A stretch of 64,000 bases of DNA from Planctomycetota bacterium (GCA_963204915.1 CAUJHS010000083.1:10130-74129), one strand, 5' to 3'; counted from the first letter of the stretch, positions 24,077 to 60,113 are shown. A program made the numbers and translations. The notes: generated by a model not told the origin, from the letters alone.

Positions 24077-27000
24077 TCACTTGGGCCGCAAGGGAGGCAG
24101 TACCGCCGTGAGAGACAGCGAAACGGCGGCGTCGCTACCAATTACGGGAAGTTGGAAAACAGCCTGGAGGCGGCGGGGAGTATCGAGCAAGATCGCCTCG
24201 CCGCTCACCAGTACGTGCTGTACGGAACGATTGGCGGCGTCGTCCGCGCCGCCGATGTAGTTCTGAAGCCAACGCTGCAACAATTCTTGACACGTCTTGG
24301 GGTCGTCGTGACACCGTAGCCAGGAACTCGCTAAGAGAACGAGGTGCTGCATGACGCGCGCCGCGGCCAAGAGCGGCGTCGCGGAAATGGCATGAAGGTG
24401 GTGCAGCGATCCTTGCGACGCCTTCAAAGTGAGCAGATTCACGGACGCGCCGGTTTCATTCGCGGCGCCTGTCGAAGGGCGAAACCAACCGTTTCGGGCG
24501 AACGAATCGGCCGCCTCGATCGCCAATCGCCAGATAGAATTAATCTCCCCACGTTCGCCTCCTTGATTCGCGAACGCCTCGTTGGACTTCGTCAAGGTTA
24601 AGATCGCGAACTGGAACGCTGGATCGACGCCCGCGGCCTGCCAGGCCGGTCCGAGATGCGAAGTTGTTGCTGGCAGATTGTGCGGCAATTCCTCCCTGCG
24701 ATCCTTACCGATCCACGCCGGCGCGAGTTCAACCACCACAGGACAACACATCGCGGCGGCGGCTCGCGCCAAATCGAGCAACAGTTCGCCGCCTGGCGGA
24801 TCGGGAGTAATGGGAAAGTCCGCAACTAACAGTCCTGGAGGCGTTCGTTGGGCGTGTCCCGCCAGGTACAAAGTTTGATAAAGGCGAGTTTCGTGAAGAG
24901 CCGATGCTCCGCGGAGATCCGCCTGCAATTCATCACGGCACACGTTCAGCATGCGAACCCGCAAGAGCGCCCCAGTCTCGGCTTGCGAGACGAGTTCATG
25001 CAGACCCCGCCACGCCGGAAGATTGCGCAGCGCATTCTCAAGCGAGAGACCGGGCTGTAGCTCCGCAAAACGTTCACCCAGCGAGTCGCGATCTACGTCG
25101 CGCCGCCGCTGCTCCCACGAAATCGCGCCTTGGCAAGTTGTTTCTCCCTGCGGTCCGCGAGAAAAATCCGCTACGGCGACAATCGTGAATGGCAATTCAA
25201 CGCGTTCGATTGCGCCGGACTCGTCAATCGGCACAAACATGCCCACACGAGGGGCGCGCACACGTTGAAGTCGCGAGGCGATCGACGCGCGTCCCGCCCT
25301 GTGCTCGGCATCCTTGGGGGACGATTGTTTCGCGGGGGCGGCGATGCTGGGGGCAAGCGGCGACGACTCGTCAAGCGGCGGCGTCAAGGTCTCTGTCGGC
25401 TCCTGAGTTTCGGGCAGTGGGGTTTTGTCCGCATGACCACCTTTCCCGTGCGTAAAGAGGCCGGCCAACCGGCCGAAGAATCCGCCGCGGCGAGGAGGCG
25501 CGGCTTCGCGCGAGGCGCTACGCCACATGGGCGGCGAGATTGCACCACGCGGCGCTGAGATCATGCCGTCCGAGGCTTTCGAATCGAGGGTAGGGGAGAT
25601 TTCGCTGGCGCCCTGACGGCGAGGCGCGGCCGCGTCCGTGTCGGTCACGCTTTCCGGCGTTTCATACGTCGCGGCAAGGCGCTGGAACTCGCTGCGTGCG
25701 AGGTTCCTAGGCGGCAAGCCGCGCACTGGATCACTGGGGAACGGCGTTTGCCAGTAAACGGGACGAATCCAGTCGCGGCGGTTCAGTGAGAGTGCGAATT
25801 CGCATTCTTCCTGCACCAGCCGCGAGTTCATGGCGTGCGCCGACCAGAAAAGCTGAAACACATCGGCGCCGCGAATTAGCTCCTGCAACTCTTGACCAAT
25901 CCGCCCTTGTGCGCGCAGCGCGCGGCACTCAGATAGATATTCATCGCCCAAGACCCGCGCGTAGTTTTCGAACTGGTGCACGATCGACCGATCGTTCTCT
26001 GCAAAGGCTGGGTAGATGCGGCGAAACCGGCGAGCGGCCACCGTTTCAGTTTGAGCTGCGCTTCCATCATCGGGGGCGACCGCCTCGACGCGAAAAGCAA
26101 GCGGAATCTCGGCGATCAAAATACTTCCCAGAAAGACGCTCATCCGGCCCTGGATACGTTGGCTTTCCCGAGCCGCCGGCGCCCGCATGCGAAACTCCTC
26201 GCGATGCACCGATTCACGCCACATAAAGGTGCGCTGCGGCGGATTGAATTCGATGCCTCGGGCGGTGGGGAGGAATGTCAACTCGCCTTCATGGGGAATC
26301 GGCTCACTGCTGTCTTGCCGGACATCAGCGTAGTCCCCGACCTGTTCGCCCAAGATGCGCTCCGCCTGACGTTGGATTTCCTCCAGAGGATCCGGTTGGT
26401 CGGATCGTGCATCCTTGGGAAGTTCGGCCAAATGGGCGAAAGCCAGAAGCAAATACCATCGCGCGGGCTGCACCGATTTGGGCCGAAAAACCGTGAACTG
26501 CACATTGTCGTCGCAAGCGCGGTCGAACGATTGGAGCAAATCGGGCCGTGGCGGCGGGGGGGCAAAACCGACGAGAGGCGAAATGTGCGAGGTCCGCCGC
26601 GCCAGCGCCGCGTGCAACGCCTCCGCCAAGTCACGGGCCGTCGCATACCGATGGGCGATTGACTTGTGCAGGCATCGTAAACAGATTTCCTCCAGATCGC
26701 GGGGGATCCGATCGTCGATCATCCGGCAGGGCTTCGGCTCGCGATGCTCGATCTGCTCAAGAACATCCTGCAAAGTCTTGCCAAAAAAGGGACGACGACG
26801 TGTCAGCAGCTCATACAGCACTACGCCCAAGGCCCAAATGTCGGTGCGGCCGTCCATACAATGCGCCTCGCCGCGCACCTGTTCGGGCGCCATATAAGCA
26901 GGCGTGCCGGAAATCTCCCCACGTCGCCAGGCCTGTTCGTCCTCGTGCAAAGCCAGGCCGAAGTCGACCAAACACGGTTCGCCCGAGGGCTGCAAAAGAA

Positions 27001-27943
27001 TGTTGGCCGGCTTGATGTCGCGATGTACGAGCCCGTGCAGATGGGCATGATGCACAGCCTCCGCCACAGCGGCGACAATCCGCGCCGATTCGGCGAAGGG
27101 CAGCGGCCCGGCTTCGCAATGGGTCTTCAGGTCGACGCCTTCAATCAGCTTCGACGCCATAAAACAGTAGCCGTCGCTGGTTCGCCCGGCATGGTACACC
27201 GGCACGATGCCTGGGTGGTCCAGCTGGGCCAAGCGGCGCGCCTCGGCTAGATAGGCTTGAATCTCTTCCTCGGTGGCGGCCAGGCGGCGATGCGGCACCT
27301 TAATCGCCACGCGTCGTTCTAACACAAGATCGAACGCCCGATAAACGACGCCGAACGCCCCTTGTCCTAACAGAGCTTCGAGGCGGTAGCCCGGAATCTT
27401 AGGAACGAAGTCCTCGCTGTCGTCCTGCCGATCCGCAAGCGGCGAGTGGCCTCCGCCCTGTTCCGGCGCGTCAAGAAGACGAGTTTCATCGGCGGAAGCA
27501 AGCCTCAATTTGCGAGAATGCGAGGCTCTGCCAAGAACATGACGAAGCTCATCGCATGCCGCCGAAGGAAGCATCGAAAAGCGCGCGAGGAAGGCCTCCA
27601 CCTCCACGCGTTCGCCGTGCTGCTCACGATAACCGAACTCTTCAAGAATCAACCATCCGATGTGCCACGTTTCGCTCGCCAGCGCGGGACACGCCGCCAG
27701 ATAGTCTTCGACCAAACGGGGACGTTCTCCTCGCCATTGACAATGCTGATCAATCAGGAACGCATCGCCCCAGTCCCGCGGGGTTGCAGCGGGAAAACCT
27801 CTCAAATACGCGATTACGTCGGGCGGCCCGGTGAAGCGGTCACACAATTCGCAGTACCCCTGCGCGATCACCCCGCGCGGCGGTTTTTCAAGCCACAAGT
27901 CCAGGGATTCGGGAAGCATGGATGACGAATTGTCGGGCGTCAC
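24077..27943 (-). CDS. 1288-aa multidomain protein in one ORF. Parts: N-terminal domain; Ser/Thr kinase ('LGQGAFGVVYRA', 'VAIKV', 'HRDIKPANILL', 'DFGLA', 'GTPAYMAPE'); TIR-like domain (~25650-26000; 'DVFQLFWSAHAMNSRLVQEECEFAL'); Pro/Ser/Thr-rich linker; C-terminal type-VI-secretion sheath-like module (~24080-25270) comprising TssB/VipA-like ('VELPFTIVAVADFSRG...RRRDVDRDSLGERFAELQP') fused to TssC/VipB-like ('LPAWRGLHELV...LRVRMLNVCRDELQADL...LYQTLY...PPGLLVADF...AAAAMCCPVVVELAP...SFARNGWF...LLQRWLQNYIGG')
   Basis: Continuous ORF in the track; motif-level alignment to kinase subdomains and to conserved blocks of VipA and VipB. Confidence 0.85.
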   Translation of the reverse strand: MTPDNSSSMLPESLDLWLEKPPRGVIAQGYCELCDRFTGPPDVIAYLRGFPAATPRDWGDAFLIDQHCQWRGERPRLVEDYLAACPALASETWHIGWLILEEFGYREQHGERVEVEAFLARFSMLPSAACDELRHVLGRASHSRKLRLASADETRLLDAPEQGGGHSPLADRQDDSEDFVPKIPGYRLEALLGQGAFGVVYRAFDLVLERRVAIKVPHRRLAATEEEIQAYLAEARRLAQLDHPGIVPVYHAGRTSDGYCFMASKLIEGVDLKTHCEAGPLPFAESARIVAAVAEAVHHAHLHGLVHRDIKPANILLQPSGEPCLVDFGLALHEDEQAWRRGEISGTPAYMAPEQVRGEAHCMDGRTDIWALGVVLYELLTRRRPFFGKTLQDVLEQIEHREPKPCRMIDDRIPRDLEEICLRCLHKSIAHRYATARDLAEALHAALARRTSHISPLVGFAPPPPRPDLLQSFDRACDDNVQFTVFRPKSVQPARWYLLLAFAHLAELPKDARSDQPDPLEEIQRQAERILGEQVGDYADVRQDSSEPIPHEGELTFLPTARGIEFNPPQRTFMWRESVHREEFRMRAPAARESQRIQGRMSVFLGSILIAEIPLAFRVEAVAPDDGSAAQTETVAARRFRRIYPAFAENDRSIVHQFENYARVLGDEYLSECRALRAQGRIGQELQELIRGADVFQLFWSAHAMNSRLVQEECEFALSLNRRDWIRPVYWQTPFPSDPVRGLPPRNLARSEFQRLAATYETPESVTDTDAAAPRRQGASEISPTLDSKASDGMISAPRGAISPPMWRSASREAAPPRRGGFFGRLAGLFTHGKGGHADKTPLPETQEPTETLTPPLDESSPLAPSIAAPAKQSSPKDAEHRAGRASIASRLQRVRAPRVGMFVPIDESGAIERVELPFTIVAVADFSRGPQGETTCQGAISWEQRRRDVDRDSLGERFAELQPGLSLENALRNLPAWRGLHELVSQAETGALLRVRMLNVCRDELQADLRGASALHETRLYQTLYLAGHAQRTPPGLLVADFPITPDPPGGELLLDLARAAAAMCCPVVVELAPAWIGKDRREELPHNLPATTSHLGPAWQAAGVDPAFQFAILTLTKSNEAFANQGGERGEINSIWRLAIEAADSFARNGWFRPSTGAANETGASVNLLTLKASQGSLHHLHAISATPLLAAARVMQHLVLLASSWLRCHDDPKTCQELLQRWLQNYIGGADDAANRSVQHVLVSGEAILLDTPRRLQAVFQLPVIGSDAAVSLSLTAVLPPLRPK

Positions 27944-36883: not shown

Positions 36884-39800
36884 ATGTTTGGCCATCATTT
36901 TATTAGCTATTCCTCGCTGGACGGGCTGGACCTGGCGTTGCATCTGCATGACGCGTTGACCTCGGGCGAGCCGCCGTTGCCGGTGTGGTTGGATCGGCAT
37001 GAGTTGCGAGCCGGTTCGCCCCGGTGGGACGCCCAGCTCGACGATGCGCTGCGAAGCTGCGCCAGCCTGATCTTCCTGATGACGCCCGACAGCGTGGAGC
37101 ACCAGTCAGAGTGCGCCAACGAATGGTCGCGGGCGATGCGTTACAAGAAACCGATCACGCTGGTGCTAGGCGACCCCGCGGCGGCGCCGCCGTTCGCCTT
37201 TGAACGTAGGCAGTACATCGACTGTTCGCACTCGTTCCAGGCCGGCGTGTCCGCCTTGCGCAAACATCTGGAGTGGCTGAAAACTCCGCCAGGCATTTTG
37301 CAGGAACTGCAATTCCGCCGCGAAACAGCGCTGCGCGACTTGCGCCGAGCTCAGCGCGACCCGCTGATCGATCCAACGCGCGTCGCACGCATCGAGGCCG
37401 AGCTGAACGAACTGGATCAGCAGATCCACGAGCAAGAAGAGATTGTGGCCGATCCTGCCGCCGCAGCGCGACGGGTCGAGAACAGCATTGCCTTGGGGTT
37501 GGAGCGCGAGCGGCAACAAGCCGGCTCGGCCATGGCGCCGCGTACGAAGTTCATCAATCCGCCGCCGGGGCTGGCGCCGGAGTATTTTCAGGACCGCTAC
37601 GTCGAAACGAAGTTGATTGCCGAGTTCCTGCAGAACGACTCCCAACGGTTGATGACCCTGGTGGGACGCGGCGGCGTGGGCAAGACGGCTCTCTCGTGCC
37701 GGCTGCTCAAATCGCTTGAGTCCGGCGTACTGCCGGACGACCTGGGAACTTTGTCGATTGACGGCATTGTGTACCTCAGCGGCGTTGGCTCACACAAGAT
37801 CCAAACCGCGAACCTGTTTGGCGACTTGTCTCGCCTGCTGCCACACGACGCCGCAGCCAAAATGGAGGCGTTGTACAAAAACGCCCATGTGGGCATTCGC
37901 GCCAAGCTGGAAGCCCTGCTTGATGTGCTGCCGCCGGGACGAGTTGTGGTCCTGCTGGATAACTTCGAAGATGTGGTCGATCCACAAAACCGCAAATTGT
38001 GTGACCCTGATCTCTTCGAAGCATTGCAAGCCTTGTTGCAGTTGCCGCATCATGCGGTCAAGCTCGTGTTGACAACGCGCGTGGCGGCGCTTGACCTGGC
38101 TCAAGTGCAGCCGGGGCGGCAAGCCCGCATCGACCTGGATGAAGGACTGCCGACGCCGTTTGCGGAGAATATTCTGCGCGCTATGGACGCGGACGGCAAA
38201 GTGGGCCTACGCGACGCTCCCGCCGCCTTACTGCGAGAGGCGCAGACGCGCACGCGCGGCTATCCTCGCGCGCTTGAAGCGCTGTTCGCGATCCTTTCGG
38301 CCGACCGGGACACCAGCTTGGGTGAGGTGCTGGCCCAGACCGAAGCTCTGCCCGAAGGCGTGGTCGAAGCGCTCGTGGGCGACGCATTCAGTCGCTTGGA
38401 CGCCGTGGCGCAGCAGGTGATGCAGGCGCTGGCGATTTACGGCCGTCCGGTCACGTCGAACGCCGTCGACTATTTGTTGCAGCCGTACCTTCCGAGCATT
38501 GACAGCGCCCGCGTGCTGGGCCGGTTGGTCAACATGTTACTCGTCCGTAAGGATGCGGGGCGGTATCACCTGCACCCGGTGGATGGGGCTTACGCTTTGA
38601 GCCGCTTGCCCGATGGAGAACCGGCGGATCACGTGGTGCAGCCGTTGCCCTATTCTCGCTATGCCTTGCTGCACCGCGGAGCGGAATACTTCCGCCAGGC
38701 GCGCAAGCCCGCCGACCAGTGGAAAACGCTAGATGACCTCTTGCCGCAACTGGCCGAGTTCGACCTGCGGTGCGCCAGCCAGGACTTTGAAACCGCGGCC
38801 CGGGTGTTGATCGAGATCGACTTCCAGTACTTGCGGCGGTGGGGGCATTATGCGTTGTGCGCCCAATTGCACGAACGCTTGCGCGATCAGTTGACGGATC
38901 CAGCCCTGGAAACCACCTGCGTGGGCAACTTGGGCATCGCCTATCGCGACTTGGGCGAGGCCGAGCGAGCGATCGCCTGTTTTGAACGAGCGCTGACGCT
39001 GGCTCGGCAACGTCGGGCGTTGTCGGCCCAGGCGGTGTGGTTGTGCAACATTGGAGCGACCTGCGATGCGTTGGGGCAAACGCAACGCTCGCTGCAATGC
39101 CACCAAGAAGCGCTCGTGATCGATCAAAAACTGGGTGACGAAGACGGCGTGGCGGTCGATCTGCATAATCTTTCGGGCCGCTTCGCCGAACTAGGACAAA
39201 CGGAACAAGCCCTCGCCGCCTGCCGCCGGTCGATCGAAATTGCCCGCCGCATGTATGCGCATAGCGCCAAAGGGCAACAGCCGCGCAAGGCCGATAACCA
39301 GCGTTACGCCGTCGCTCTGCGGCTAGGTACACTCGCGCGGCTGCTTGACGACGCTGGCGATTTTCCGCAAGCCATCGCGGCGGCCAAGGAGGGACTCCAT
39401 CTGGCGGAAGATTTCCACAGCCCGGAGATCAACACGCGCAATCGTTACTACTTGGGTCTGGCCCAGTTGCTGTTGGGCGAGTTCGACGCCGCCCGCGACA
39501 CGGTCGAAGCGGCGGCCCGGTACGACTTCCCGCGGTATAACCATCGGTTATTGGTGCTCTCCGGCTTGGTGCGGTGGCGCATGAGGCGTCAAGACGAGGC
39601 CGCCGCCTTGTTCGACGAAGCCGCCGCCGTCGCACGAAAGTTGACCGACCATTGTCCTAACTATTACGAAGCGCAAGAATCGCTGGCATTGGCTCAGTGC
39701 GGTCGATCGGCCTGTGGCCATGGCGACCACTGGAGTGAGGCCGAGCGGCTGTTTCGCCGCCTGCGGCAAATCAACGCCTTTCCGGGCAAAGTGAAGCGCA

Positions 39801-39889
39801 CACTCCAATTGCTCGACCAACTCGAGTCCCCGGAAACCGCCGCCGTGCTCGCCAAAGTTCGCCCTATCGCTCAAGGGCAAGCCGAGTAA
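36884..39889 (+). CDS. TIR-NB-ARC-TPR STAND NTPase (bacterial NLR-like): N-terminal TIR ('HHFISYSSLDG...SECANEW'), coiled coil, P-loop NB-ARC ('LVGRGGVGKTAL...VVVLLDNFEDV'), C-terminal TPR array
   Basis: Translation motifs; architecture typical of anti-phage TIR-STAND proteins. Confidence 0.85.
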   Translation: MFGHHFISYSSLDGLDLALHLHDALTSGEPPLPVWLDRHELRAGSPRWDAQLDDALRSCASLIFLMTPDSVEHQSECANEWSRAMRYKKPITLVLGDPAAAPPFAFERRQYIDCSHSFQAGVSALRKHLEWLKTPPGILQELQFRRETALRDLRRAQRDPLIDPTRVARIEAELNELDQQIHEQEEIVADPAAAARRVENSIALGLERERQQAGSAMAPRTKFINPPPGLAPEYFQDRYVETKLIAEFLQNDSQRLMTLVGRGGVGKTALSCRLLKSLESGVLPDDLGTLSIDGIVYLSGVGSHKIQTANLFGDLSRLLPHDAAAKMEALYKNAHVGIRAKLEALLDVLPPGRVVVLLDNFEDVVDPQNRKLCDPDLFEALQALLQLPHHAVKLVLTTRVAALDLAQVQPGRQARIDLDEGLPTPFAENILRAMDADGKVGLRDAPAALLREAQTRTRGYPRALEALFAILSADRDTSLGEVLAQTEALPEGVVEALVGDAFSRLDAVAQQVMQALAIYGRPVTSNAVDYLLQPYLPSIDSARVLGRLVNMLLVRKDAGRYHLHPVDGAYALSRLPDGEPADHVVQPLPYSRYALLHRGAEYFRQARKPADQWKTLDDLLPQLAEFDLRCASQDFETAARVLIEIDFQYLRRWGHYALCAQLHERLRDQLTDPALETTCVGNLGIAYRDLGEAERAIACFERALTLARQRRALSAQAVWLCNIGATCDALGQTQRSLQCHQEALVIDQKLGDEDGVAVDLHNLSGRFAELGQTEQALAACRRSIEIARRMYAHSAKGQQPRKADNQRYAVALRLGTLARLLDDAGDFPQAIAAAKEGLHLAEDFHSPEINTRNRYYLGLAQLLLGEFDAARDTVEAAARYDFPRYNHRLLVLSGLVRWRMRRQDEAAALFDEAAAVARKLTDHCPNYYEAQESLALAQCGRSACGHGDHWSEAERLFRRLRQINAFPGKVKRTLQLLDQLESPETAAVLAKVRPIAQGQAE

Positions 39890-40167
39890 CGCACCATGCG
39901 CCCGGCAAGGTCCCCCGCCACACCTTCCCTCGTGTGCTGCGGCGGAAGAGTTTCGCTGCGCTGTATGAAACGCCCCCACGCGAGAAGAGGATCATGGGGG
40001 CCGGCCCTTCGACGCTTTTGCAGGCAAACTCACGACGCCTGCATGAACTTTTCCCGCGAGCGGCGCGTGTGAGTACGCGCCGCTTGGTCGTGCAAATCCT
40101 TTTGTCCCCGTCCGACGCGATCCTCGTCGGGAAAGTTAGGCCGTCGAACGCGCATCGTAACCGTCCG

Positions 40168-40755: not shown

Positions 40756-41265
40756 AAAACACCTCGTGAACGGTGACCAATCCGATCTGCCTTGCGAGAC
40801 ATTCGCATGGCGTTCTCTTTAGATCATGACGAGTCAACGTTCAGGACAGACATCGAAAGTGCTTCATGCAATTTGCTGCGGCGACGATCTGCTCTAGATG
40901 TTTGTCCCGGCAGTAGATTCTTTCTGCGCGATGGATACTTTTCAGGCTGCCGAGCGTTTAAGTGACTACCAACGTTGATTGCGTCAGTTTTTGCAAATCA
41001 AGAAATTTTTGCGAACCAACGCAGGACAACAGCGTCTATATCTACAACACGCGACGAACAGGGTTGCGGCCTAAGAAATTTGAATACCAGTAAGTCACCG
41101 GATACGGAATCATGGCTTCATTACGGCTCAGTTTTACCCGGTCAATACTGACCGAACGATTTCGTGAATATGAGGATGGGACCGTGTCGCGAGACGCGAA
41201 TGCGCTCCCCTTGCATCCACGTCGGTGGTAACACTCGGCCGAACTAACGAAGCAACGTTGGCGAA

Positions 41266-41300
41266 CCCGGTGTTATCCCAAGAGTGACACCGGGTTTTTT
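41266..41300 (+). terminator. Hairpin CCCGGTGT/ACACCGGG (13-nt loop) followed by TTTTTT, ~30 nt upstream of the first tRNA of the array
   Basis: Seen in sequence. Confidence 0.45.
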
Positions 41301-41330
41301 CGTGTCAATTTGCAACGTTTGACCTACCGA

Positions 41331-41402
41331 TGGACTGGTAGCTGAGACGGTATAGCGCTGGCCTGAAGAGCCGGAGAGGAGGGTTCGAGCACCTCCCAGT
41401 CC
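41331..41402 (+). tRNA. tRNA-Phe (anticodon GAA)
   Basis: Acceptor GGACTGG/CCAGTCC, D-arm GCTG-AGACGGTA-TAGC, anticodon loop CTGAAGA. Confidence 0.65.
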
Positions 41403-41472
41403 ACTGGTTACGCATTTGGCAAAAGCACATGGATAACAACTGCGGTCGAGATACGCGCCTATACAACCAACG

Positions 41473-41547
41473 TCGGCTCGTTCGACTTCTGGTGAGGTCG
41501 CTGGTCTTTCAAGCCAGCTAGGTTGGGTTCGAATCCCACACGAGTCG
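41473..41547 (+). tRNA. tRNA-Glu (anticodon TTC), copy 1
   Basis: Acceptor CGGCTCG/CGAGTCG, anticodon arm CTGGT-CTTTCAA-GCCAG; T-arm has one mismatch. Confidence 0.55.
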
Positions 41548-41560
41548 CTGACATAACGAA

Positions 41561-41628
41561 TGGGCTTGCCGACGGGTCGGCGCTTTGACTTGCACTCAAG
41601 GCTTCAGGGTTCAACTCCCTGCATGTCC
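41561..41628 (+). tRNA. tRNA-Ala-like (anticodon TGC, G3:U70 wobble in the acceptor) with a compressed D-arm
   Basis: Acceptor GGGCTTG/CATGTCC, anticodon arm TTTGA-CTTGCAC-TCAAG, T-arm CAGGG-TTCAACT-CCCTG. Confidence 0.45.
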
Positions 41629-41702
41629 ACTGAACAATGAACAGCACTGGAGACGACGATGCAATCACTTAGTTGCTTGAAACGCATACCCATAGCCATT
41701 CA

Positions 41703-41774
41703 TGAGGCTGTGGTGTAGCGGCGGCACGGCGGACTTTTAATCCGTAAAGCGTGGGTTCGAATCCCACCGGCCTC
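41703..41774 (+). tRNA. tRNA-Lys (anticodon TTT)
   Basis: Acceptor GAGGCTG/CGGCCTC, D GTGT-AGCGGCG-GCAC, anticodon GCGGA-CTTTTAA-TCCGT, T GTGGG-TTCGAAT-CCCAC. Confidence 0.8.
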
Positions 41775-41780
41775 ACTTGT

Positions 41781-41853
41781 TCGGCGTGAAGCTCGCTGGT
41801 CCGAGCAGCGTCCTTATAAGACGAAGTTCGAAGGTTCGATTCCTTCCACGCCG
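41781..41853 (+). tRNA. tRNA with anticodon TAT (would decode AUA, Ile). Unusual in bacteria.
   Basis: Acceptor CGGCGTG/CACGCCG, D GCTC-GCTGGTCC-GAGC, anticodon loop CTTATAA, T GAAGG-TTCGATT-CCTTC. Confidence 0.55.
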
Positions 41854-41879
41854 ACTTGAAGGAGAAACGCCGAGGGGAT

Positions 41880-41957
41880 TGTGCCAGACAAGGTAAAGCA
41901 CCAAACGCTTCATCTGGTCGAAGGAGGTTCAATGCCCACCGATCCCGCTACTTGAAT
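41880..41957 (+). tRNA. tRNA-like element with an aberrant T-arm (GGAGG-TTCAATG-CCCAC); isotype unresolved
   Basis: T-loop-like motif and partial acceptor complementarity only. Confidence 0.3.
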
Positions 41958-42035
41958 AAGCACGGATGGTCGAATGGCATGACCCCGCTTTCGTAAAGCG
42001 GCTGCGTGCGTTCGATTCCGGGCGCCGACGTACTC
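41955..42035 (+). tRNA. tRNA-Thr-like (anticodon arm CCGCT-TTCGTAA-AGCGG, anticodon CGT) with a non-pairing T-stem
   Basis: Anticodon hairpin clear; acceptor and T-arm not canonical. Confidence 0.3.
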
Positions 42036-42085
42036 GTTGGTCGCGGTGCTCTTTGATCTTTGACAATCTGGTTAAGCCAACAAAA

Positions 42086-42157
42086 GGCGTCCATGGTGTA
42101 GTGGGAACCCATCTGCTTGCCATGCAGAAAACGCGAGTTCGATTCTCGCTGGACGCT
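42086..42157 (+). tRNA. tRNA-Gly (anticodon GCC)
   Basis: Acceptor GCGTCCA/TGGACGC, anticodon TCTGC-TTGCCAT-GCAGA, T GCGAG-TTCGATT-CTCGC. Confidence 0.8.
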
Positions 42158-42166
42158 CTTCATGTA

Positions 42167-42241
42167 TCAGGGTGTGGGAAAGCCTGGCTACTCCGCGTGC
42201 TTCGGGAGCACGAGATCGTCGGTTCAAATCCGACCATCCTG
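42167..42241 (+). tRNA. tRNA-Pro (anticodon CGG)
   Basis: Acceptor CAGGGTG/CATCCTG, anticodon CGTGC-TTCGGGA-GCACG, T GTCGG-TTCAAAT-CCGAC. Confidence 0.7.
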
Positions 42242-42254
42242 ACTAATTTTTTCT

Positions 42255-42330
42255 TGTGGGTCCTTTTTTGGTAAGGGAAGGCTCCGGTTCATCGCCTAGA
42301 CGTAAGTTCGATTCCTGTCTCTGGTCCTGA
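42255..42330 (+). tRNA. tRNA-like element with an over-long or aberrant T-region (…GACGTAAGTTCGATTCCTGTC…); isotype unresolved
   Basis: TTCGATTCC motif without a canonical stem. Confidence 0.25.
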
Positions 42331-42408
42331 GGTCGTCCTGAATTGGTTCAGAAACTTGCCGATGACCCCAGTTTATGGCGGACTGATTCCGATCAGTCGC
42401 CCTATGAA

Positions 42409-42492
42409 TGGAAGACATCTGGCTGGATGAGGAAACCGCCTTGAAAGCGGCTGGCGCTGATAACGCTTCAGGGTTCGAGTCCCTGGTCTTCC
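42409..42492 (+). tRNA. tRNA-Ser (anticodon TGA), type II with a long variable arm
   Basis: Acceptor GGAAGAC/GTCTTCC, anticodon loop CTTGAAA, variable hairpin, T CAGGG-TTCGAGT-CCCTG. Confidence 0.7.
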
Positions 42493-42503
42493 GCCTTGTT
42501 TGA

Positions 42504-42581
42504 AACAATCCTGTCGTCTGGCGGCGAAGGCGCCTGGTTTACACCCAGTCGATCGACGGTTCGAGTCCCTCCAGGACTACT
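42504..42581 (+). tRNA. tRNA-Val-like (anticodon loop TTTACAC, anticodon TAC) with a mismatched T-stem
   Basis: Acceptor AATCCTG/CAGGACT (6/7 pairs), anticodon CTGG-TTTACAC-CCAG. Confidence 0.35.
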
Positions 42582-42598
42582 TTGTGTTGAAGTTTAAA

Positions 42599-42673
42599 CA
42601 CCCAGATACGCCAACCTGGCAGAGCGGCTCGGCTCAGACCCGAGGGTTTGCAGGTTCAAGTCCTGCTCTGGGT
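42599..42673 (+). tRNA. Type-I (short variable arm) tRNA with anticodon CAG. Would read CUG (Leu), but it lacks the long variable arm of bacterial tRNA-Leu.
   Basis: Acceptor ACCCAGA/TCTGGGT, anticodon CTCGG-CTCAGAC-CCGAG, T GCAGG-TTCAAGT-CCTGC. Confidence 0.5.
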
Positions 42674-42686
42674 ACTGTTGTCGGTA

Positions 42687-42760
42687 TGGCTCGGTAGGCA
42701 ATCGGCAGACCACGCTGTTTCAAACTCAGTGATGCTGTGGGTTCAAATCCCACCTGAGCC
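42687..42760 (+). tRNA. tRNA-like; the anticodon arm is ambiguous (loop TTTCAAA or TTCAAAC; anticodon TCA or CAA)
   Basis: Acceptor GGCTCGG/CTGAGCC, T GTGGG-TTCAAAT-CCCAC; weak anticodon stem. Confidence 0.4.
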
Positions 42761-42774
42761 ATTGAAGAAAACTA

Positions 42775-42849
42775 TGTCCTCGTGGAGCAGCCTGGAGTGC
42801 TCGCTACCCTGTCACGGTAGAGATCGTGGGTTCAAATCCCATCGGGGAC
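42775..42849 (+). tRNA. tRNA-Asp (anticodon GTC)
   Basis: Acceptor GTCCTCG/CGGGGAC, D GAGC-AGCCTGGA-GTGCTC, anticodon CTACC-CTGTCAC-GGTAG, T GTGGG-TTCAAAT-CCCAT. Confidence 0.8.
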
Positions 42850-42954
42850 GCTGTGTCGAGAGGAACGACGACAGAAAAGTAACCATCCATGAGCGCTGGG
42901 CACGCATTCTCCCGTCCCGTGTTTGTTTGGCTGGTTGCGTTGCGCGGTGCTTTA

Positions 42955-43037
42955 TGCGTCGGTTGGGCATTGGCAAGCCTCAGTGGCTGTAATCCACCCG
43001 CCTTTCTGGCTTTGCAGGTTCAACTCCTGCCCGGCGC
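42955..43037 (+). tRNA. tRNA-Tyr (anticodon GTA), type II
   Basis: Acceptor GCGTCGG/CCGGCGC, anticodon GTGG-CTGTAAT-CCAC, variable hairpin GCC-TTTCT-GGC, T GCAGG-TTCAACT-CCTGC. Confidence 0.65.
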
Positions 43038-43054
43038 ACTTGAAGTGGTTTGTT

Positions 43055-43127
43055 TGGCGCGGTGCGATGTTGGTTTTGCAACGAGGCTTTCAATCTCGTC
43101 TACGCGGGTTCAATTCCCGTCCGCGTC
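43055..43127 (+). tRNA. tRNA-Glu (anticodon TTC), copy 2
   Basis: Acceptor GGCGCGG/CCGCGTC, anticodon CGAGG-CTTTCAA-TCTCG, T GCGGG-TTCAATT-CCCGT. Confidence 0.65.
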
Positions 43128-43140
43128 ACTTGGTATAACA

Positions 43141-43208
43141 ATGCAGGTGGGCAGGGTCCCAACCAGCCCTCATAAGGCCGGTCTCTCGGTTCGATTCCGT
43201 GACCTGCA
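43141..43208 (+). tRNA. tRNA-Met-like (anticodon CAT). A lysidine-modified Ile or initiator identity cannot be excluded.
   Basis: Acceptor TGCAGGT/ACCTGCA, anticodon loop CTCATAA; T-stem has one mismatch. Confidence 0.5.
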
Positions 43209-43267
43209 ATTTGGCAATCGCGCAGCACCGAACAAAGTAATGCGAACCAAGTAACGTCGTAATTGTA

Positions 43268-43342
43268 TGGCCGGGTACGCAAACAGGTAAAGCGAGCAGT
43301 TCGAGACGCTGCGATTTTGTGGGTTCGATTCCCACCCTGGTC
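43268..43342 (+). tRNA. tRNA-like with anticodon arm GCAGT-TCGAGAC-GCTGC (anticodon GAG, position 33 not U); isotype uncertain
   Basis: Acceptor GGCCGGG/CCTGGTC, T GTGGG-TTCGATT-CCCAC. Confidence 0.4.
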
Positions 43343-43429
43343 ACTTCCATCGTGGTGCAAGCGTTAGTATGCCCGATTCGTGGCGCACTGTGACCGTTGA
43401 ACATCGCTCCATCGCGATGAAACGTCTCT

Positions 43430-43500
43430 GGGTCTGTTGGTGTTGTGGCGGCACGCGTTCGTGGTAAGGACGAAGATCGGGTTCGATTCCCGGACGGACC
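43430..43500 (+). tRNA. tRNA-Thr (anticodon GGT)
   Basis: Acceptor GGTCTGT/ACGGACC, D GTGT-TGTGGCG-GCAC, anticodon CGTTC-GTGGTAA-GGACG, T TCGGG-TTCGATT-CCCGG. Confidence 0.7.
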
Positions 43501-43621
43501 TTTTGCCTGATTGATGGGCTGCTCGTTCAACGGCAGGACGCCTGCTTTGTACGCCAGGAGATCGGGGATCATTTCCTCGGCGGTCCACTCATCGCTAACT
43601 CGAAATTGGCAAAATTCGCAG

Positions 43622-43698
43622 TTTGGCTCGATGGTGAAACGGAAATCATTCCACCCTTCGAGCGCGGCGTTCTAGGTTGGAATCCCGGGCGAGCCAAT
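43622..43698 (+). tRNA. tRNA-like element: perfect 7-bp acceptor TGGCTCG/CGAGCCA and a T-arm with a mutated loop (TTGGAAT), but no foldable D/anticodon arms
   Basis: Seen in sequence. Confidence 0.3.
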
Positions 43699-43803
43699 CA
43701 AACTCGTTGAAGGAATGTGACGGGAAGCAAAGATAAACGTGGATATGCATACGGTGGTTCGATTTCTCGGCAGGGGGACTTAGCTGAGAGTTCGACAACG
43801 ACA

Positions 43804-43876
43804 GGTCCTTGGAGTGTGCCGGACAAGCACGCGACTGTGCGAAGGTCGAGGATCAGGTTCGATTCCTGACGAGGAC
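43804..43876 (+). tRNA. tRNA with anticodon GCG (would read CGC/CGU, Arg); non-standard for bacteria, which normally use ACG
   Basis: Acceptor GTCCTTG/CGAGGAC, D GTGT-GCCGGACAA-GCAC, anticodon CGACT-GTGCGAA-GGTCG, T TCAGG-TTCGATT-CCTGA. Confidence 0.5.
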
Positions 43877-44060
43877 GCTTTTCCCCTAATGGCGCCGCGA
43901 CGAATGAGATCGTTGGCCGTCTTTCTACCCGGAAGTATTGTGGAGACGTCGAAATTTTTGCCGTGTTATCACTTGGTTTGCTACCGCGTTGGGGAGAAAG
44001 ATTTTGGCAAATCGGAGGGGGCGATTATAATCGTGGCTCCTTCGGCAGGAGAGCACAATC

Positions 44061-59533: not shown

Positions 59534-60113
59534 GATTTAGCCCCTTCCCGTGTAGCTTATTCCAAACGGACCAAGTGAATTGAATAAAGTCCGGCGCTTG
59601 TCGTGTGTGACTTAAGGTTTTAATGGGTCGCCATCTGCGCTGGCGTTGCGTTTCACTACTTAGATTTATTTCGTTGTCGAGTCGAGTGTTGCGAGCGAGT
59701 GGATATGCCACGGAAAGTGTTCGAAAAATCCCTCCGGCGGCGAAGCAAATGGTGATCACGCGTCGAAGCACGGAGCGACGTTTAAGCCGGTTGAGGCTGC
59801 AGGGCTTCGCATGATGAGGCTGTGATGTAGGCCGAGACGATCGAGCCTCGGCGCGTACGTCAAGCCAACACCATGCGAGGCGCATGAGCGCTAACCGGCG
59901 GAATCTACGCGCTACAAGGAGCTTGTACGCGTTGCCATCTCAATGGAGGATACGCTATCCACATAGAAACCTCGACTTGCTCGGCAAGCCGACTACGTGT
60001 GCAGCGCACCTACAAGAACTGAGACGGCCGACCACGGCCTTGCTTGCCGCCGTTGGGCGGTGATGGTGGACGCCTGCGCGCCCTTCATGGAGCCGATTTC
60101 TCAATCGGCCGTC

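Follow-up and report, generated by a model that had tools for sequence, protein, structure and literature searches.

The stretch of DNA analysed here (the window) comprises 64,000 nucleotides from a Planctomycetota bacterium and contains a dense array of tRNA genes at positions 41332-43878. At default threshold 19 tRNA genes are called within 2.55 kb (~7.5 per kb), accompanied by five to six relics. All genes lie on the plus strand and are separated by gaps of 5-231 nt, the long gaps being occupied by the relics, and no tandem periodicity was detected in the array beyond the shared T-arms. Only two other tRNA genes are found in the window. Defence-like genes, with one for a TIR-NB-ARC-TPR protein, are located just upstream of the array, and the named homologues of the flanking gene all stem from Planctomycetota MAGs. 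The source assembly and two Logan assemblies from separate sequencing runs are 100% identical over the array, which is thus at least stably carried.

The array belongs to a conserved family of arrays that was recovered from a single tailed-phage contig and from 47 contigs of metagenomes. The phage contig (locus L034) has genes for a tape-measure protein and collagen-like tail fibres, and window positions 41243-42581 share 78-87% identity with it, spacers included; the same applies to 13 further loci. Anticodon order is the same across the 47 metagenome contigs, whose flanks differ from one contig to another and are mostly Planctomycete-like, e.g. a Ser/Thr kinase with TPR repeats, a sulfatase and a DUF7133-HEAT-cytochrome c protein. 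In its full form the family has a fixed order of about 32-38 tRNA genes (31-32 are counted in sister arrays) with an HNH endonuclease gene embedded in it; this gene is present in L034, L087, L091, L094 and L124 (Pfam HNH_5, 1e-14). Relative to this full order ~14 tRNA genes have been lost from the window copy, and so has the HNH gene, for which neither a tblastx match in the window nor an HNH-domain ORF near the array was found. The 3' half (42600-43878) is far more diverged (67-83%) and rearranged when compared to the sampled family, so that orthology is less secure in this part. The original prediction of a horizontally transferred tDNA array is strongly supported by this homology, which includes the spacers and extends to a phage contig and many unrelated chromosomal contexts. 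No array stands beside the nearest relatives of the flanking gene; as synteny around the gene is not conserved in these relatives, this 'empty site' is weak evidence. No phage gene was found near the array in the window, and no cultured phage record with a related array.

Read from its 5' end, the array starts with intact genes for tRNA-Phe(GAA) (41332-41404; ARAGORN; Rfam 53.6 bits; up to 100% identity to family copies) and tRNA-Glu(TTC) (41475-41548; 43.5 bits; median identity to the family 95.9%). A compact tRNA-Ala(TGC) (41562-41630) precedes a canonical tRNA-Lys(TTT) (41704-41776; 67.4 bits; no stem mismatches), and tRNA-Ile(TAT) (41782-41855) is followed by intact tRNA-Gly(GCC) (42087-42158; 62.4 bits), tRNA-Pro(CGG) (42168-42243; 52.5 bits; with an 80-nt exact block common to phage locus L034) and type II tRNA-Ser(TGA) (42410-42495; ARAGORN; median family identity 84.9%). 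A unit at 42504-42581 had been listed as broken, but the tRNA-Val(TAC) gene located there (42507-42580) reaches 36.2 bits, which exceeds the gathering cut-off of the Rfam tRNA family RF00005 (29 bits), and is therefore marginal rather than broken despite three stem mismatches; in the family its T-stem is perfect. The 3' half contains three type-I tRNA genes with Leu anticodons, i.e. CAG (42600-42675), CAA (42687-42762) and GAG (43269-43344), intact tRNA-Asp(GTC) (42776-42851; 54.8 bits), type II tRNA-Tyr(GTA) (42956-43039; ARAGORN; cloverleaf fold), a second tRNA-Glu(TTC) (43056-43129; 36.5 bits), a compact tRNA-Met(CAT) (43142-43209), intact tRNA-Thr(GGT) (43430-43502; 40.4 bits; 83% identity to the family), tRNA-Thr(TGT) (43516-43588; 34.0 bits) and intact tRNA-Arg(GCG) (43805-43878). 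The nearest family member of the second Glu gene is Glu-CTC (76% identity), from which it probably arose by an anticodon shift. Judging from its T-loop, ATCATTT, and two anticodon-stem mismatches, tRNA-Thr(TGT) is probably impaired; this aberrant T-loop had been overlooked previously. Asn, His, Gln, Cys and Trp are without a tRNA gene in the array.

A non-coding leader (40988-41262, plus strand) is conserved 5' of the array in every family member. It is ~300 nt long and 56-81% identical to the upstream regions of the family loci, depending on the locus; RNAalifold yields a multi-stem structure with little covariation, and a search of Rfam gave no family match. The leader is followed by a terminator-like hairpin (41263-41305, plus strand), composed of a 14-bp stem and a T6 run 30 nt 5' of the first tRNA gene, whose median identity across 14 family loci (92%) exceeds that of the surrounding leader. 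As no sigma-70-like promoter was found for the array and this strong hairpin is located directly in front of the first gene, the array may be silent.

Several members deviate from what is commonly found in bacteria. The anticodon UAU, predicted near 41781-41853, is borne out by the tRNA-Ile(TAT) gene called by ARAGORN (Rfam 53.0 bits). In the family alignment its mean column identity is 92% and the loop CTTATAA is invariant, with one orthologue (L107) carrying CAT, and an identical arm is present in 9 viral contigs; position 8 is A in the window, but T or C in the family. In Mycoplasma mobile, tRNA-Ile(UAU) decodes AUA without lysidine and replaces the TilS-dependent CAU tRNA, and in bacteria of this type the UAU tRNA is the sole housekeeping decoder of AUA and IleRS is co-adapted. 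The Ile-UAU described here, in contrast, is a member of a mobile array, and its orthologue L107 still has CAT. The Arg anticodon GCG, expected near 43804-43876, belongs to a gene with 21 of 21 stem pairs that is called by ARAGORN, was missed by whole-region Rfam scans and scores 38.1 bits when scanned alone. In an alignment of nine sequences all 21 pairs are standard, four of them with compensatory change, and 100% of the 189 cells are paired as compared to 25-47% with the partners slid. ArgRS identity elements are A20, C35 and G/U36 according to the E. coli rules, and the alignment shows no variation in either the D-loop GGA (G18, G19, A20) or the anticodon GCG. Positions 32 and 73 are both G in the window copy, as opposed to C/T32 and A73 in the family. 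Only GCG, TCG and TCT occur as Arg anticodons in the family, and only GAT and TAT as Ile anticodons. A shift of the anticodon loop (e.g. UAU actually being CAU) was found in none of the units.

The Leu-CAG gene without a long variable arm was recognized correctly (47.8 bits), whereas two more type-I genes, Leu-CAA (40.9 bits) and Leu-GAG (44.2 bits), had escaped notice. All three have A73 and a variable region of 5-6 nt, in contrast to the stem-loop of >10 nt of class II tRNA-Leu, and a short variable arm is also found in 31 of 34 family Leu genes and in all four Leu genes of the Anabaena array. In an alignment of 27 type-I Leu sequences 98% of the cells are paired, 19 of 20 pairs exhibit compensatory change, A73 is invariant, and U8, A14/15, G18-G19 and G53-T54-T55-C56 are invariant or nearly so. 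The anticodon arm of Leu-CAG is identical in 17 viral contigs, 15 of which contain it in a type-I tRNA. The Ala-like tRNA with G3:U70 and a compressed D-arm proved to be a 69-nt unit with a 5-bp D hairpin closed by a 4-nt loop; residues 8-9 are absent, so its shape is otherwise non-canonical, and the U5.G68 pair of the family is replaced by a U5.U68 mismatch in the window copy. Forty family copies are 94-100% identical, and a 65-nt exact block is common to phage locus L034. The tRNA-Met(CAT) unit (68 nt) likewise has a miniature D-arm, and two to three of its stem pairs are mismatched in the window; the family consensus folds into a cloverleaf (z = -3.6), but the window copy does not (z = -1.0). 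These two compact units are called by ARAGORN only. The odd but intact tRNAs are real: Ile-TAT, Leu-CAG and Arg-GCG fold well, and these three as well as Leu-CAA and Leu-GAG score above the Rfam cut-off. The Ile-UAU, Arg-GCG, three type-I Leu, 69-nt Ala and Met units are standing, structurally conserved family members, not locus-specific anomalies, and the cloverleaf of Arg-GCG and of the type-I Leu tRNAs is kept through compensatory changes.

The broken units are of a different nature. The tRNA-Lys(CTT) relic (41875-41948), previously placed at 41880-41957 (earlier coordinates were off by 1-9 nt), is seen by ARAGORN at low threshold only, but aligns over its full length with intact family Lys-CTT (median identity 79.7%); it carries U33->G and A37->C and has mismatched D, anticodon and T stems. 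In the tRNA-Thr(CGT) relic (41960-42051; 25.6 bits), aligned to intact orthologues, a 26-nt insertion (42019-42044) that recurs within other family tRNA genes displaces the 3' acceptor strand. The tRNA-Asn(GTT) relic (42252-42327; ARAGORN at low threshold; median identity to the family 78.7%) shares U33->G and A37->C and forms 4-5 of 7 acceptor pairs; the anticodon 'CCG' assigned there by ARAGORN is a register artefact. A tRNA-His(GTG) relic (42329-42402), missed by every tRNA finder used and overlooked as a sixth relic in the original prediction, is 79% identical over 72 nt to family His-GTG, with U33->G, G34->A and a destroyed T-loop. The mutated T-loop TTGGAAT noted before is located in the tRNA-Arg(TCT) relic (43624-43697; 23.8 bits; 77% identity to family Arg-TCT), whose anticodon is now TCG and which has four stem mismatches. 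All five relics are encoded on the plus strand; Thr-CGT and Arg-TCT score below the Rfam cut-off, and Lys-CTT, Asn and His give no Rfam tRNA match at all. At least five units had been described as having near-perfect acceptor stems, which is true for 41875-41948 and 43624-43697, but not for the Asn relic and the insertion-split Thr-CGT. Each relic occupies the position of an intact orthologue in the sister arrays, to which it aligns from end to end, and the damage is specific to the window. Median identity to the family is 89-98% for intact genes, 74-80% for relics and 58-77% for spacers, i.e. the relics diverge in a spacer-like manner, and the broken units are therefore pseudogenes, five or six in number: Lys-CTT, Thr-CGT, Asn-GTT, His-GTG, Arg-TCT and, probably, Thr-TGT.

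By the definition of Tran et al. (2016, PMC4758250), a tRNA array unit has a minimum of 20 tRNA genes and of 2 such genes per kb. The density of the window array exceeds this value, and its 19 callable genes are one short of 20 unless the relics are counted. L-arrays are on record for Planctomycetes, and a link between L-arrays and HNH genes has been described (PMC8421152). They are supernumerary, as the family described here probably is too, and like it they are patchy and horizontally spread and contain a few pseudogenes; frequent insertions, deletions and duplications are reported for them (PMC8421152). In our case the family occurs in a phage and at differing chromosomal sites. The window copy lacks an embedded or linked HNH gene, which is a frequent, not a strictly defining, feature of L-arrays. 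The plasmid delta trn operon of Anabaena sp. PCC 7120, in which 23 of 26 tRNAs were found to be aminoacylated in vivo (Santamaria-Gomez et al. 2021, PMC8421152), resembles the family in that over 20 tRNA genes follow one another on the same strand, separated by short spacers and in non-periodic order, among them four type-I Leu genes. Gene order differs between this operon and the window array, however, and no sequence similarity beyond generic tRNA features was detectable; moreover, the Anabaena array contains Arg-ACG and a normal Ala tRNA of 75 nt but lacks Ile-UAU, and is regulated via 9-nt promoter repeats instead of a structured leader ending in a terminator-like hairpin. The arrays of Mycobacterium (Morgado & Vicente 2018, PMC5966550), including M. 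avium (PMC12803027), share with the family a single embedded HNH gene, occurrence in both phages and cellular replicons (here mycobacteriophages, plasmids and chromosomes), and unrelated flanks between copies, but they belong to another phylum and show no sequence relationship, and the window copy is a decayed version; compact 69-nt tRNAs and a leader of this kind are not reported in these papers. Phage tRNA clusters (T4 with SegB, T5, large environmental phages) are likewise associated with homing endonucleases, and the nearest homologue of the window array adjoins tail genes in a phage contig, whereas the window array itself resides in a bacterial chromosome without a nearby phage gene. Taken together, the array is very probably a horizontally acquired, partly decayed L-array (tRNA array unit) of phage type in a Planctomycetota chromosome. 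Arrays of this kind are already known, and what is modestly new concerns the compact tRNAs, the leader and the mini-insertion.

It is conceivable, but unlikely, that the whole array is a dead relic, a recent arrival from a phage that is not transcribed and owes the apparent conservation of its intact genes only to selection in the donor. The missing promoter-like site, the conserved hairpin upstream, the loss of the HNH gene and ~14 tRNA genes, the window-specific stem mismatches in Val-TAC, Met-CAT, Thr-TGT and Ala, and the poor expression reported for L-arrays (PMC8421152) would fit this reading. Within one collinear block, however, the relics show 20-26% lineage-specific change and the adjacent genes 0-6%, indicating that, in this lineage, the intact genes stayed under selection for a long time after inactivation of the relics. 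The selection deduced from these rates may date from an earlier carrier (phage or other host) instead of from this chromosome. Stable carriage also argues against a dead relic, as do the Leu and Glu anticodons of the array (CAG, CAA, GAG, TTC), which match the commonest Leu and Glu codons of the host, whereas family Leu anticodons are mostly TAG and TAA. At the opposite extreme, the array might be the host's own essential tRNA complement, its odd anticodons reflecting a host without TilS and TadA. AUA does occur, if rarely (1.0 per 1000 codons), Arg is most often encoded by CGC, and further tRNA genes are scarce in the window; but the array recurs in a phage and at unrelated chromosomal sites, is absent beside the orthologous gene in relatives, lacks tRNAs for five amino acids and has bit scores (34-67) that are low for housekeeping tRNAs, rendering this explanation very improbable.

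Two more proposals concern individual units. The broken units could be functional tRNA mimics, serving as decoys or sacrificial substrates for tRNA-targeting toxins, an idea that the original prediction raised without naming anticodon nucleases, which would be one such toxin, or as regulatory tRNA-like RNAs. U33->G is common to three relics and A37->C to two, loop changes have been proposed to let phage tRNAs escape anticodon nucleases (PMC10264068), and the TIR-NB-ARC-TPR gene is close by. Yet divergence of this level is expected to produce about three shared changed positions by chance, the damage extends over all stems and T-loops with one unit being split by an insertion, and the altered states are confined to the window while the orthologues are intact in more than 10 other arrays. 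Together with the spacer-like divergence of the relics this leaves the decoy or toxin-substrate reading unsupported and makes functional mimics extremely unlikely. The type-I tRNAs with Leu anticodons might be charged with another amino acid, so that CUG, UUG and CUC would be recoded or mistranslated. As LeuRS does not use the anticodon as an identity element, the anticodon alone is no proof of Leu identity; in addition, the class-II variable arm is absent, and some Anabaena operonic tRNAs have aberrant acid-gel mobility (PMC8421152). This possibility is nevertheless very improbable, considering that A73, the main LeuRS determinant, and the tertiary core are kept, that the D-arm resembles that of type-II Leu tRNAs with the same anticodon arm (L014, L015), that in Aquifex tRNA-Leu A73 is crucial and removal of the variable arm chiefly reduces affinity (PMC2377443), and that mistranslation was not detected in Anabaena (PMC8421152).

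If the array is a partly decayed L-array whose intact genes remain usable, the surviving 14-17 genes may be transcribed as one precursor, which would be cut by RNase P and RNase Z. CCA is encoded by none of the genes and would thus have to be added post-transcriptionally. The tRNAs would then be charged by the host synthetases, with LeuRS relying on A73 and the tertiary core instead of the variable arm, ArgRS reading A20, C35 and G36 in Arg-GCG, and AlaRS reading G3:U70 in the compact Ala. If the Anabaena L-array and phage tRNA clusters are a guide, the array may constitute a supplementary pool of tRNAs that is normally silent and could be useful when host tRNAs become limiting or are attacked, with the conserved leader and terminator possibly acting as a gate. 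The four-codon boxes would each be decoded by G34 and U34 and AUA by UAU, so that the set could do without both TadA (the A34 deaminase) and TilS (the lysidine synthetase), an independence that would suit a tRNA pool having to function in any host.

[quoted passage not shown] The window array differs from this kind in that it has 19 callable genes, whereas the formal threshold is 20, lacks an HNH gene and is clearly decaying.

ARAGORN, run on the window, places the 19 tRNA genes on one strand and finds two lone tRNAs further downstream. In a whole-window scan the Rfam tRNA gathering score is reached by 15 tRNAs, of which 13 belong to the array. Scanning shorter sequences brings Thr-GGT (40.4 bits) and Arg-GCG (38.1 bits) above it as well, and their absence from the whole-window scan is thus a filter effect. 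A lowered ARAGORN threshold adds four weak units (41875-41948, 41957-42029, 42253-42327 and 43624-43697). CCA is encoded by none of the array tRNA genes, and in 17 of the 19 a C-T directly follows the discriminator, which may represent a common 3'-processing context. A lone tRNA on the minus strand (60111-60184, 74 nt, type I, i.e. without long variable arm, 57.6 Rfam bits) carries the Leu anticodon AAG and G37; its first two acceptor pairs are mismatched (A.G, C.C), as if the 5' strand had lost one G, and its anticodon arm has no match in viral contigs.

The original prediction, which had read odd anticodons and broken units from the sequence, was largely correct. The anticodons of Ile-TAT (41782-41855, 53.0 bits) and Arg-GCG (43805-43878, 21 of 21 stem pairs standard) are as predicted and unshifted, and Leu-CAG (42600-42675) indeed lacks a long variable arm, its variable region being 5 nt long. 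A frame shift in any of these three anticodons is ruled out, as ARAGORN, Infernal and orthologue alignments agree; the only frame artefact is the "CCG" that ARAGORN assigns to the damaged Asn-GTT copy. The Ala unit (41562-41630) has the expected G3:U70 pair and a compact D-arm (5-bp D hairpin, 4-nt loop); it is 69 nt long, and its acceptor stem abuts the D hairpin directly; a Met unit (43142-43209) shows the same compact build. Leu-CAA (42687-42762) and Leu-GAG (43269-43344) are type I as well, and all three window Leu genes have A73.

Relatives of the array occur in phages and metagenomes. When IMG/VR was searched with the anticodon arm of Leu-CAG, 17 viral contigs matched, 15 of which carry a 75-78-nt Leu-CAG in a phage tRNA cluster, and a scan with the Ile-TAT arm returned nine phage Ile-TAT genes, one of them in L034, a tailed-phage contig that codes for a tape-measure protein and collagen-like tail fibres. 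L034 contains a 32-tRNA array with almost the gene order of the window; window 41243-42581 is 78-87% identical to it, spacers and upstream region included, with exact blocks of 65 nt in the Ala unit and 80 nt in Pro-CGG. Using the Ala D-arm sequence, we found 47 metagenome contigs with the same array family. Its consensus order is Phe-GAA, Glu-TTC, Ala-TGC (69 nt), Pro-TGG, Ile-GAT, Lys-TTT, Ile-TAT, Lys-CTT, Thr-CGT, Gly-GCC, Pro-CGG, Asn-GTT, Ser-CGA, Gly-TCC, Gln-TTG, Gln-CTG, His-GTG, Ser-TGA, Val-TAC, (Cys-GCA), Asp-GTC, Leu-TAG (74 nt), Arg-GCG, Arg-TCG, Leu-CAA (75 nt), Leu-TAA (75 nt), Tyr-GTA, Glu-CTC, Leu-CAG (84 nt), Met-CAT (69 nt), Met-CAT, Leu-GAG (78 nt), Val-GAC, Thr-GGT, Ala-GGC, Ser-GCT, Arg-TCT, an HNH gene (Pfam HNH_5, 1e-14) and Trp-CCA. 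At individual slots the anticodon has changed: window Glu-TTC (43056-43129) probably occupies the family Glu-CTC slot, and the metagenome locus L120 has CAT where other loci have Thr-CGT.

Where contigs are long enough to show flanking genes, these (Ser/Thr kinase with TPR repeats, sulfatase, DUF7133-HEAT-cytochrome c protein, FG-GAP proteins) vary between contigs, and two metagenome loci, L100 and L106, have glycosyl- and methyltransferase genes in common with the phage contig. Together with the phage context of L034 this argues that the family is mobile between a phage and many Planctomycete-like chromosomes, and it bears out the horizontal transfer proposed originally. Searches of cultured phage genomes and PLSDB plasmids for a related array gave generic single-tRNA matches only. 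A 15-mer from the Arg-GCG anticodon arm had 34 chance hits in viral contigs, never within a tRNA, and a conserved plus-strand ORF upstream of several sister arrays was discarded as an array gene because it lies antisense to the gene of a flanking CoA-binding protein. Just downstream of several sister arrays lies a gene for a Ro60/TROVE and vWA protein (L087 10487-12166, L094 4052-5446, L126 1-564, oriented; Pfam vWA_Ro60 1.8e-13, TROVE 1.9e-10), and an ADP-ribosylglycohydrolase-like ORF is found by the arrays of L091, L095 and L128. Such RNA-quality-control neighbours have likewise been reported for cyanobacterial L-arrays.

Those odd members that are intact are traits of the whole family, and their structure is under selection. 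In an alignment of nine Arg-GCG sequences all 189 of 189 pair cells are standard, compensatory changes occur in four pairs, and G18, G19, A20 and the anticodon are invariant; with the partners slid as a control, only 25-47% are paired. Among 27 type-I Leu sequences (three from the window, CAG genes from phages, and TAG, CAA, TAA and GAG genes from the family) 98% of the cells are paired, 19 of 20 pairs show compensatory change, and A73, U8, G18-G19 and the T-loop are invariant. Ile-TAT has a mean column identity of 92% with an invariant CTTATAA loop, and its orthologue in locus L107 has CAT, which ties the gene to the Ile2 lineage. The 69-nt Ala is 94-100% identical across 40 family copies, the search pattern lying in its D-arm, and the family consensus of the 69-nt Met folds into a cloverleaf (z = -3.6). 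Arg anticodons in the family are restricted to GCG, TCG and TCT and Ile anticodons to GAT and TAT, and each four-codon box is read by G34 plus U34; from this we infer that the set needs neither TadA nor TilS. As to the missing variable arm, A73 and the tertiary core are critical for Aquifex LeuRS, and deletion of the arm mainly reduces affinity (PMC2377443). The L-array of Anabaena PCC 7120 likewise has four Leu genes with a short variable arm, and 23 of its 26 tRNAs are charged in vivo, three being pseudogenes (PMC8421152). As at most three genes are uncharged there, at least one of the four type-I Leu tRNAs is charged.

On sequence grounds the broken units, in contrast, are pseudogenes. Five of them had been predicted, and all exist, their coordinates having been off by up to 9 nt; the near-perfect acceptor stems ascribed to them hold for two and fail for the others, and one, Val-TAC (42507-42580), is still above the Rfam cut-off. 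A sixth, the His-GTG relic, had been missed, as had Thr-TGT with its T-loop ATCATTT. For each relic, sister arrays have an intact orthologue in the corresponding position to which it can be aligned along its whole length, and the damage is window-specific. In Lys-CTT (41875-41948) U33 is changed to G and A37 to C and three stems contain mismatches; Asn-GTT (42252-42327) has the same two changes and 4 of 7 acceptor pairs; His-GTG (42329-42402) has U33 to G, G34 to A and a destroyed T-loop; Arg-TCT (43624-43697) now has the anticodon TCG and the T-loop TTGGAAT; and in Thr-CGT (41960-42051) the 5' two-thirds are intact and the T-arm is split by a 26-nt insertion (42019-42044). Relative to intact orthologues, the U33 to G change recurs in three independent relics (41875-41948, 42252-42327, 42329-42402) and A37 to C in two, which may be due to chance or may reflect the original inactivating hits.

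The original prediction had offered decoys as another reading of such units, and the full-length alignment with intact orthologues, the window-specific damage and a divergence like that of spacers leave it unsupported. In one collinear block, compared with 14 family loci, intact genes have a median identity of 89-98%, against 58-77% for spacers and 74-80% for relics. The orthologues of the relics hardly vary across the family, and the excess change therefore arose in the window lineage; since the genes adjoining the relics have changed by only 0-6%, purifying selection was maintained on these neighbours while the relics drifted.

Decay extends beyond the relics. Of the consensus genes, those lost from the window are Pro-TGG, Ile-GAT, Ser-CGA, Gly-TCC, Gln-TTG, Gln-CTG, Cys, Arg-TCG, one Leu, one Met, Val-GAC, Ala-GGC, Ser-GCT, Trp and the one for HNH. 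Val-TAC, Met-CAT, Thr-TGT and Ala of the window have one to three new stem mismatches. The 3' half of the array is rearranged and more diverged (67-83% identity), and the spacers 42852-42955, 43210-43268, 43345-43429 and 43698-43804 have no homology to any family sequence. The last of these, the 107-nt spacer before Arg-GCG, contains a T-arm-like remnant (43752-43767, CGGTGGTTCGATTTCT), hinting at one further, fully decayed unit without remaining family homology.

The 26-nt insertion is hairpin-like (reverse complement GCGACCAACGAGTACGTCGGCGCCCG) and occurs seven times, in either orientation and always within array-family tRNA genes (Thr-CGT, Ile-TAT, Phe-GAA, Asp-GTC, Lys-TTT): besides window 42019-42044, at L090 1226-1252, L092 4088-4114, L094 749-779 and 1793-1819, and L116 706-736 and 1750-1776 (loci oriented with the Ala gene on the plus strand; L090, L092 and L094 as fetched, L116 reverse-complemented). 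None was found outside tRNA genes in the loci or the window, and the element loosely resembles the leader segment 41243-41272. Other insertions of 12-20 nt turn family tRNA genes of 72-76 nt into versions of 86-96 nt that ARAGORN mis-assigns, e.g. 15 nt in the D-arm region of Pro-CGG (L092, L110, L123), about 17 nt in the anticodon loop of Val-TAC (L095, L097, L124, L126, L094, L116), and further ones in Ala-GGC (L087) and a Lys-TTT homologue (L130).

A scan upstream of the array found no sigma-70-like promoter. A non-coding leader of about 250-300 nt (40988-41305) ends in a terminator-like hairpin of 14 bp with T6 (41263-41297), 30 nt before Phe-GAA. Leader and hairpin are kept in all 27 of 27 family loci examined, the phage copy included, and the hairpin is strongly conserved. 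RNAalifold predicts a multi-stem fold with few informative substitutions; one of its hairpins is capped by GCAA and shows a compensatory change from C-G to U-A. The leader matches no Rfam family, the T-box and Y-RNA models included. The element may be a leader/attenuator or a separate small RNA.

The surroundings of the array are chromosomal and Planctomycete-like (DUF7133-cytochrome c protein, Ser/Thr kinases, TIR-NB-ARC-TPR protein, PPK2, C92 peptidase); phage genes, an integrase and att-like direct repeats were sought around it and not found, the only direct repeats being shared T-arms. G+C is about 0.61 over 1-40 kb and about 0.55 over 40-64 kb, with the step near 40000; the array sits at the start of the lower-G+C part, which also contains ordinary Planctomycete genes. 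Every named homologue of the flanking C92 peptidase is from Planctomycetota MAGs, and the orthologous gene of the nearest relatives (57-72% amino-acid identity) has no adjacent tRNA gene; a contig scan with the peptidase led to a 57%-identical Planctomycetaceae MAG with neither array nor synteny, which says little on the insertion site. At the array, the window sequence is matched with 100% identity by two Logan assemblies, each from a separate sequencing run. Two proteins encoded upstream have defence-like or unusual architectures: a TIR-NB-ARC/AAA-TPR (STAND-like) protein (36884-39889) ending about 1.4 kb before the array, and, further upstream, a 1288-aa protein in which a Ser/Thr kinase and a TIR domain are fused to VipA/VipB-like (type VI sheath) segments (24077-27943).

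Among 10,825 codons counted in Pfam-supported genes of the window, no sense codon is rarer than ATA (1.0 per 1000, 3% of Ile), and CGC is the commonest Arg codon (43%). Leu is encoded mainly by CTG (28%), TTG (28%) and CTC (20%), matched by the window anticodons CAG, CAA and GAG, the family having mostly TAG and TAA; this is compatible with some host adaptation. Otherwise retention and loss do not track codon frequency, as Lys-CTT and Thr-CGT decayed yet read the commonest Lys and Thr codons.

In the searchable literature we found no explicit account of tRNA-Leu with a short variable arm in phage or array tRNAs, nor a description of the family's GCG/UCG/UAU decoding set, its conserved Ala and Met of 69 nt, the structured leader or the 26-nt insertion, which is no proof of novelty; some of these family-level features are worth following up. 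A joint reading, which we regard as improbable, would combine them into a minimal host-independent decoding kit with leader-gated read-through and a new mobile element or nuclease footprint. The kit would consist of G34 and U34 tRNAs per box, Arg-GCG/UCG replacing the TadA-dependent ACG, Ile-UAU replacing the TilS-dependent CAU, Leu without variable arm, and Ala and Met of 69 nt whose D-loop has 4 nt; bacterial ribosomes would have to accept every one of them. The structured leader of about 250 nt and its terminator hairpin would act as an attenuator gating read-through in response to translational stress or infection, and the 26-nt hairpin element, whose insertions are confined to the tRNA genes of such arrays, would represent either a miniature mobile element of a new sort or the footprint of the array HNH endonuclease.

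The apparent anomalies resolve into one coherent history, that of a phage-type tRNA array probably captured by a Planctomycete and trimmed gene by gene, in which conserved genes next to decaying neighbours provide a built-in contrast showing which tRNAs stayed under selection. Mobile arrays regularly contain Arg-GCG, Ile-UAU and tRNA-Leu that lacks a long variable arm, and these are not annotation errors, which bears on tRNA annotation pipelines and on the question why tRNA sets are carried by phages and mobile elements. Ala and Met of 69 nt, being strictly conserved, offer a concrete, testable lead on how far bacterial translation tolerates truncated tRNAs, and the structured leader with its terminator one on how such arrays get switched on.
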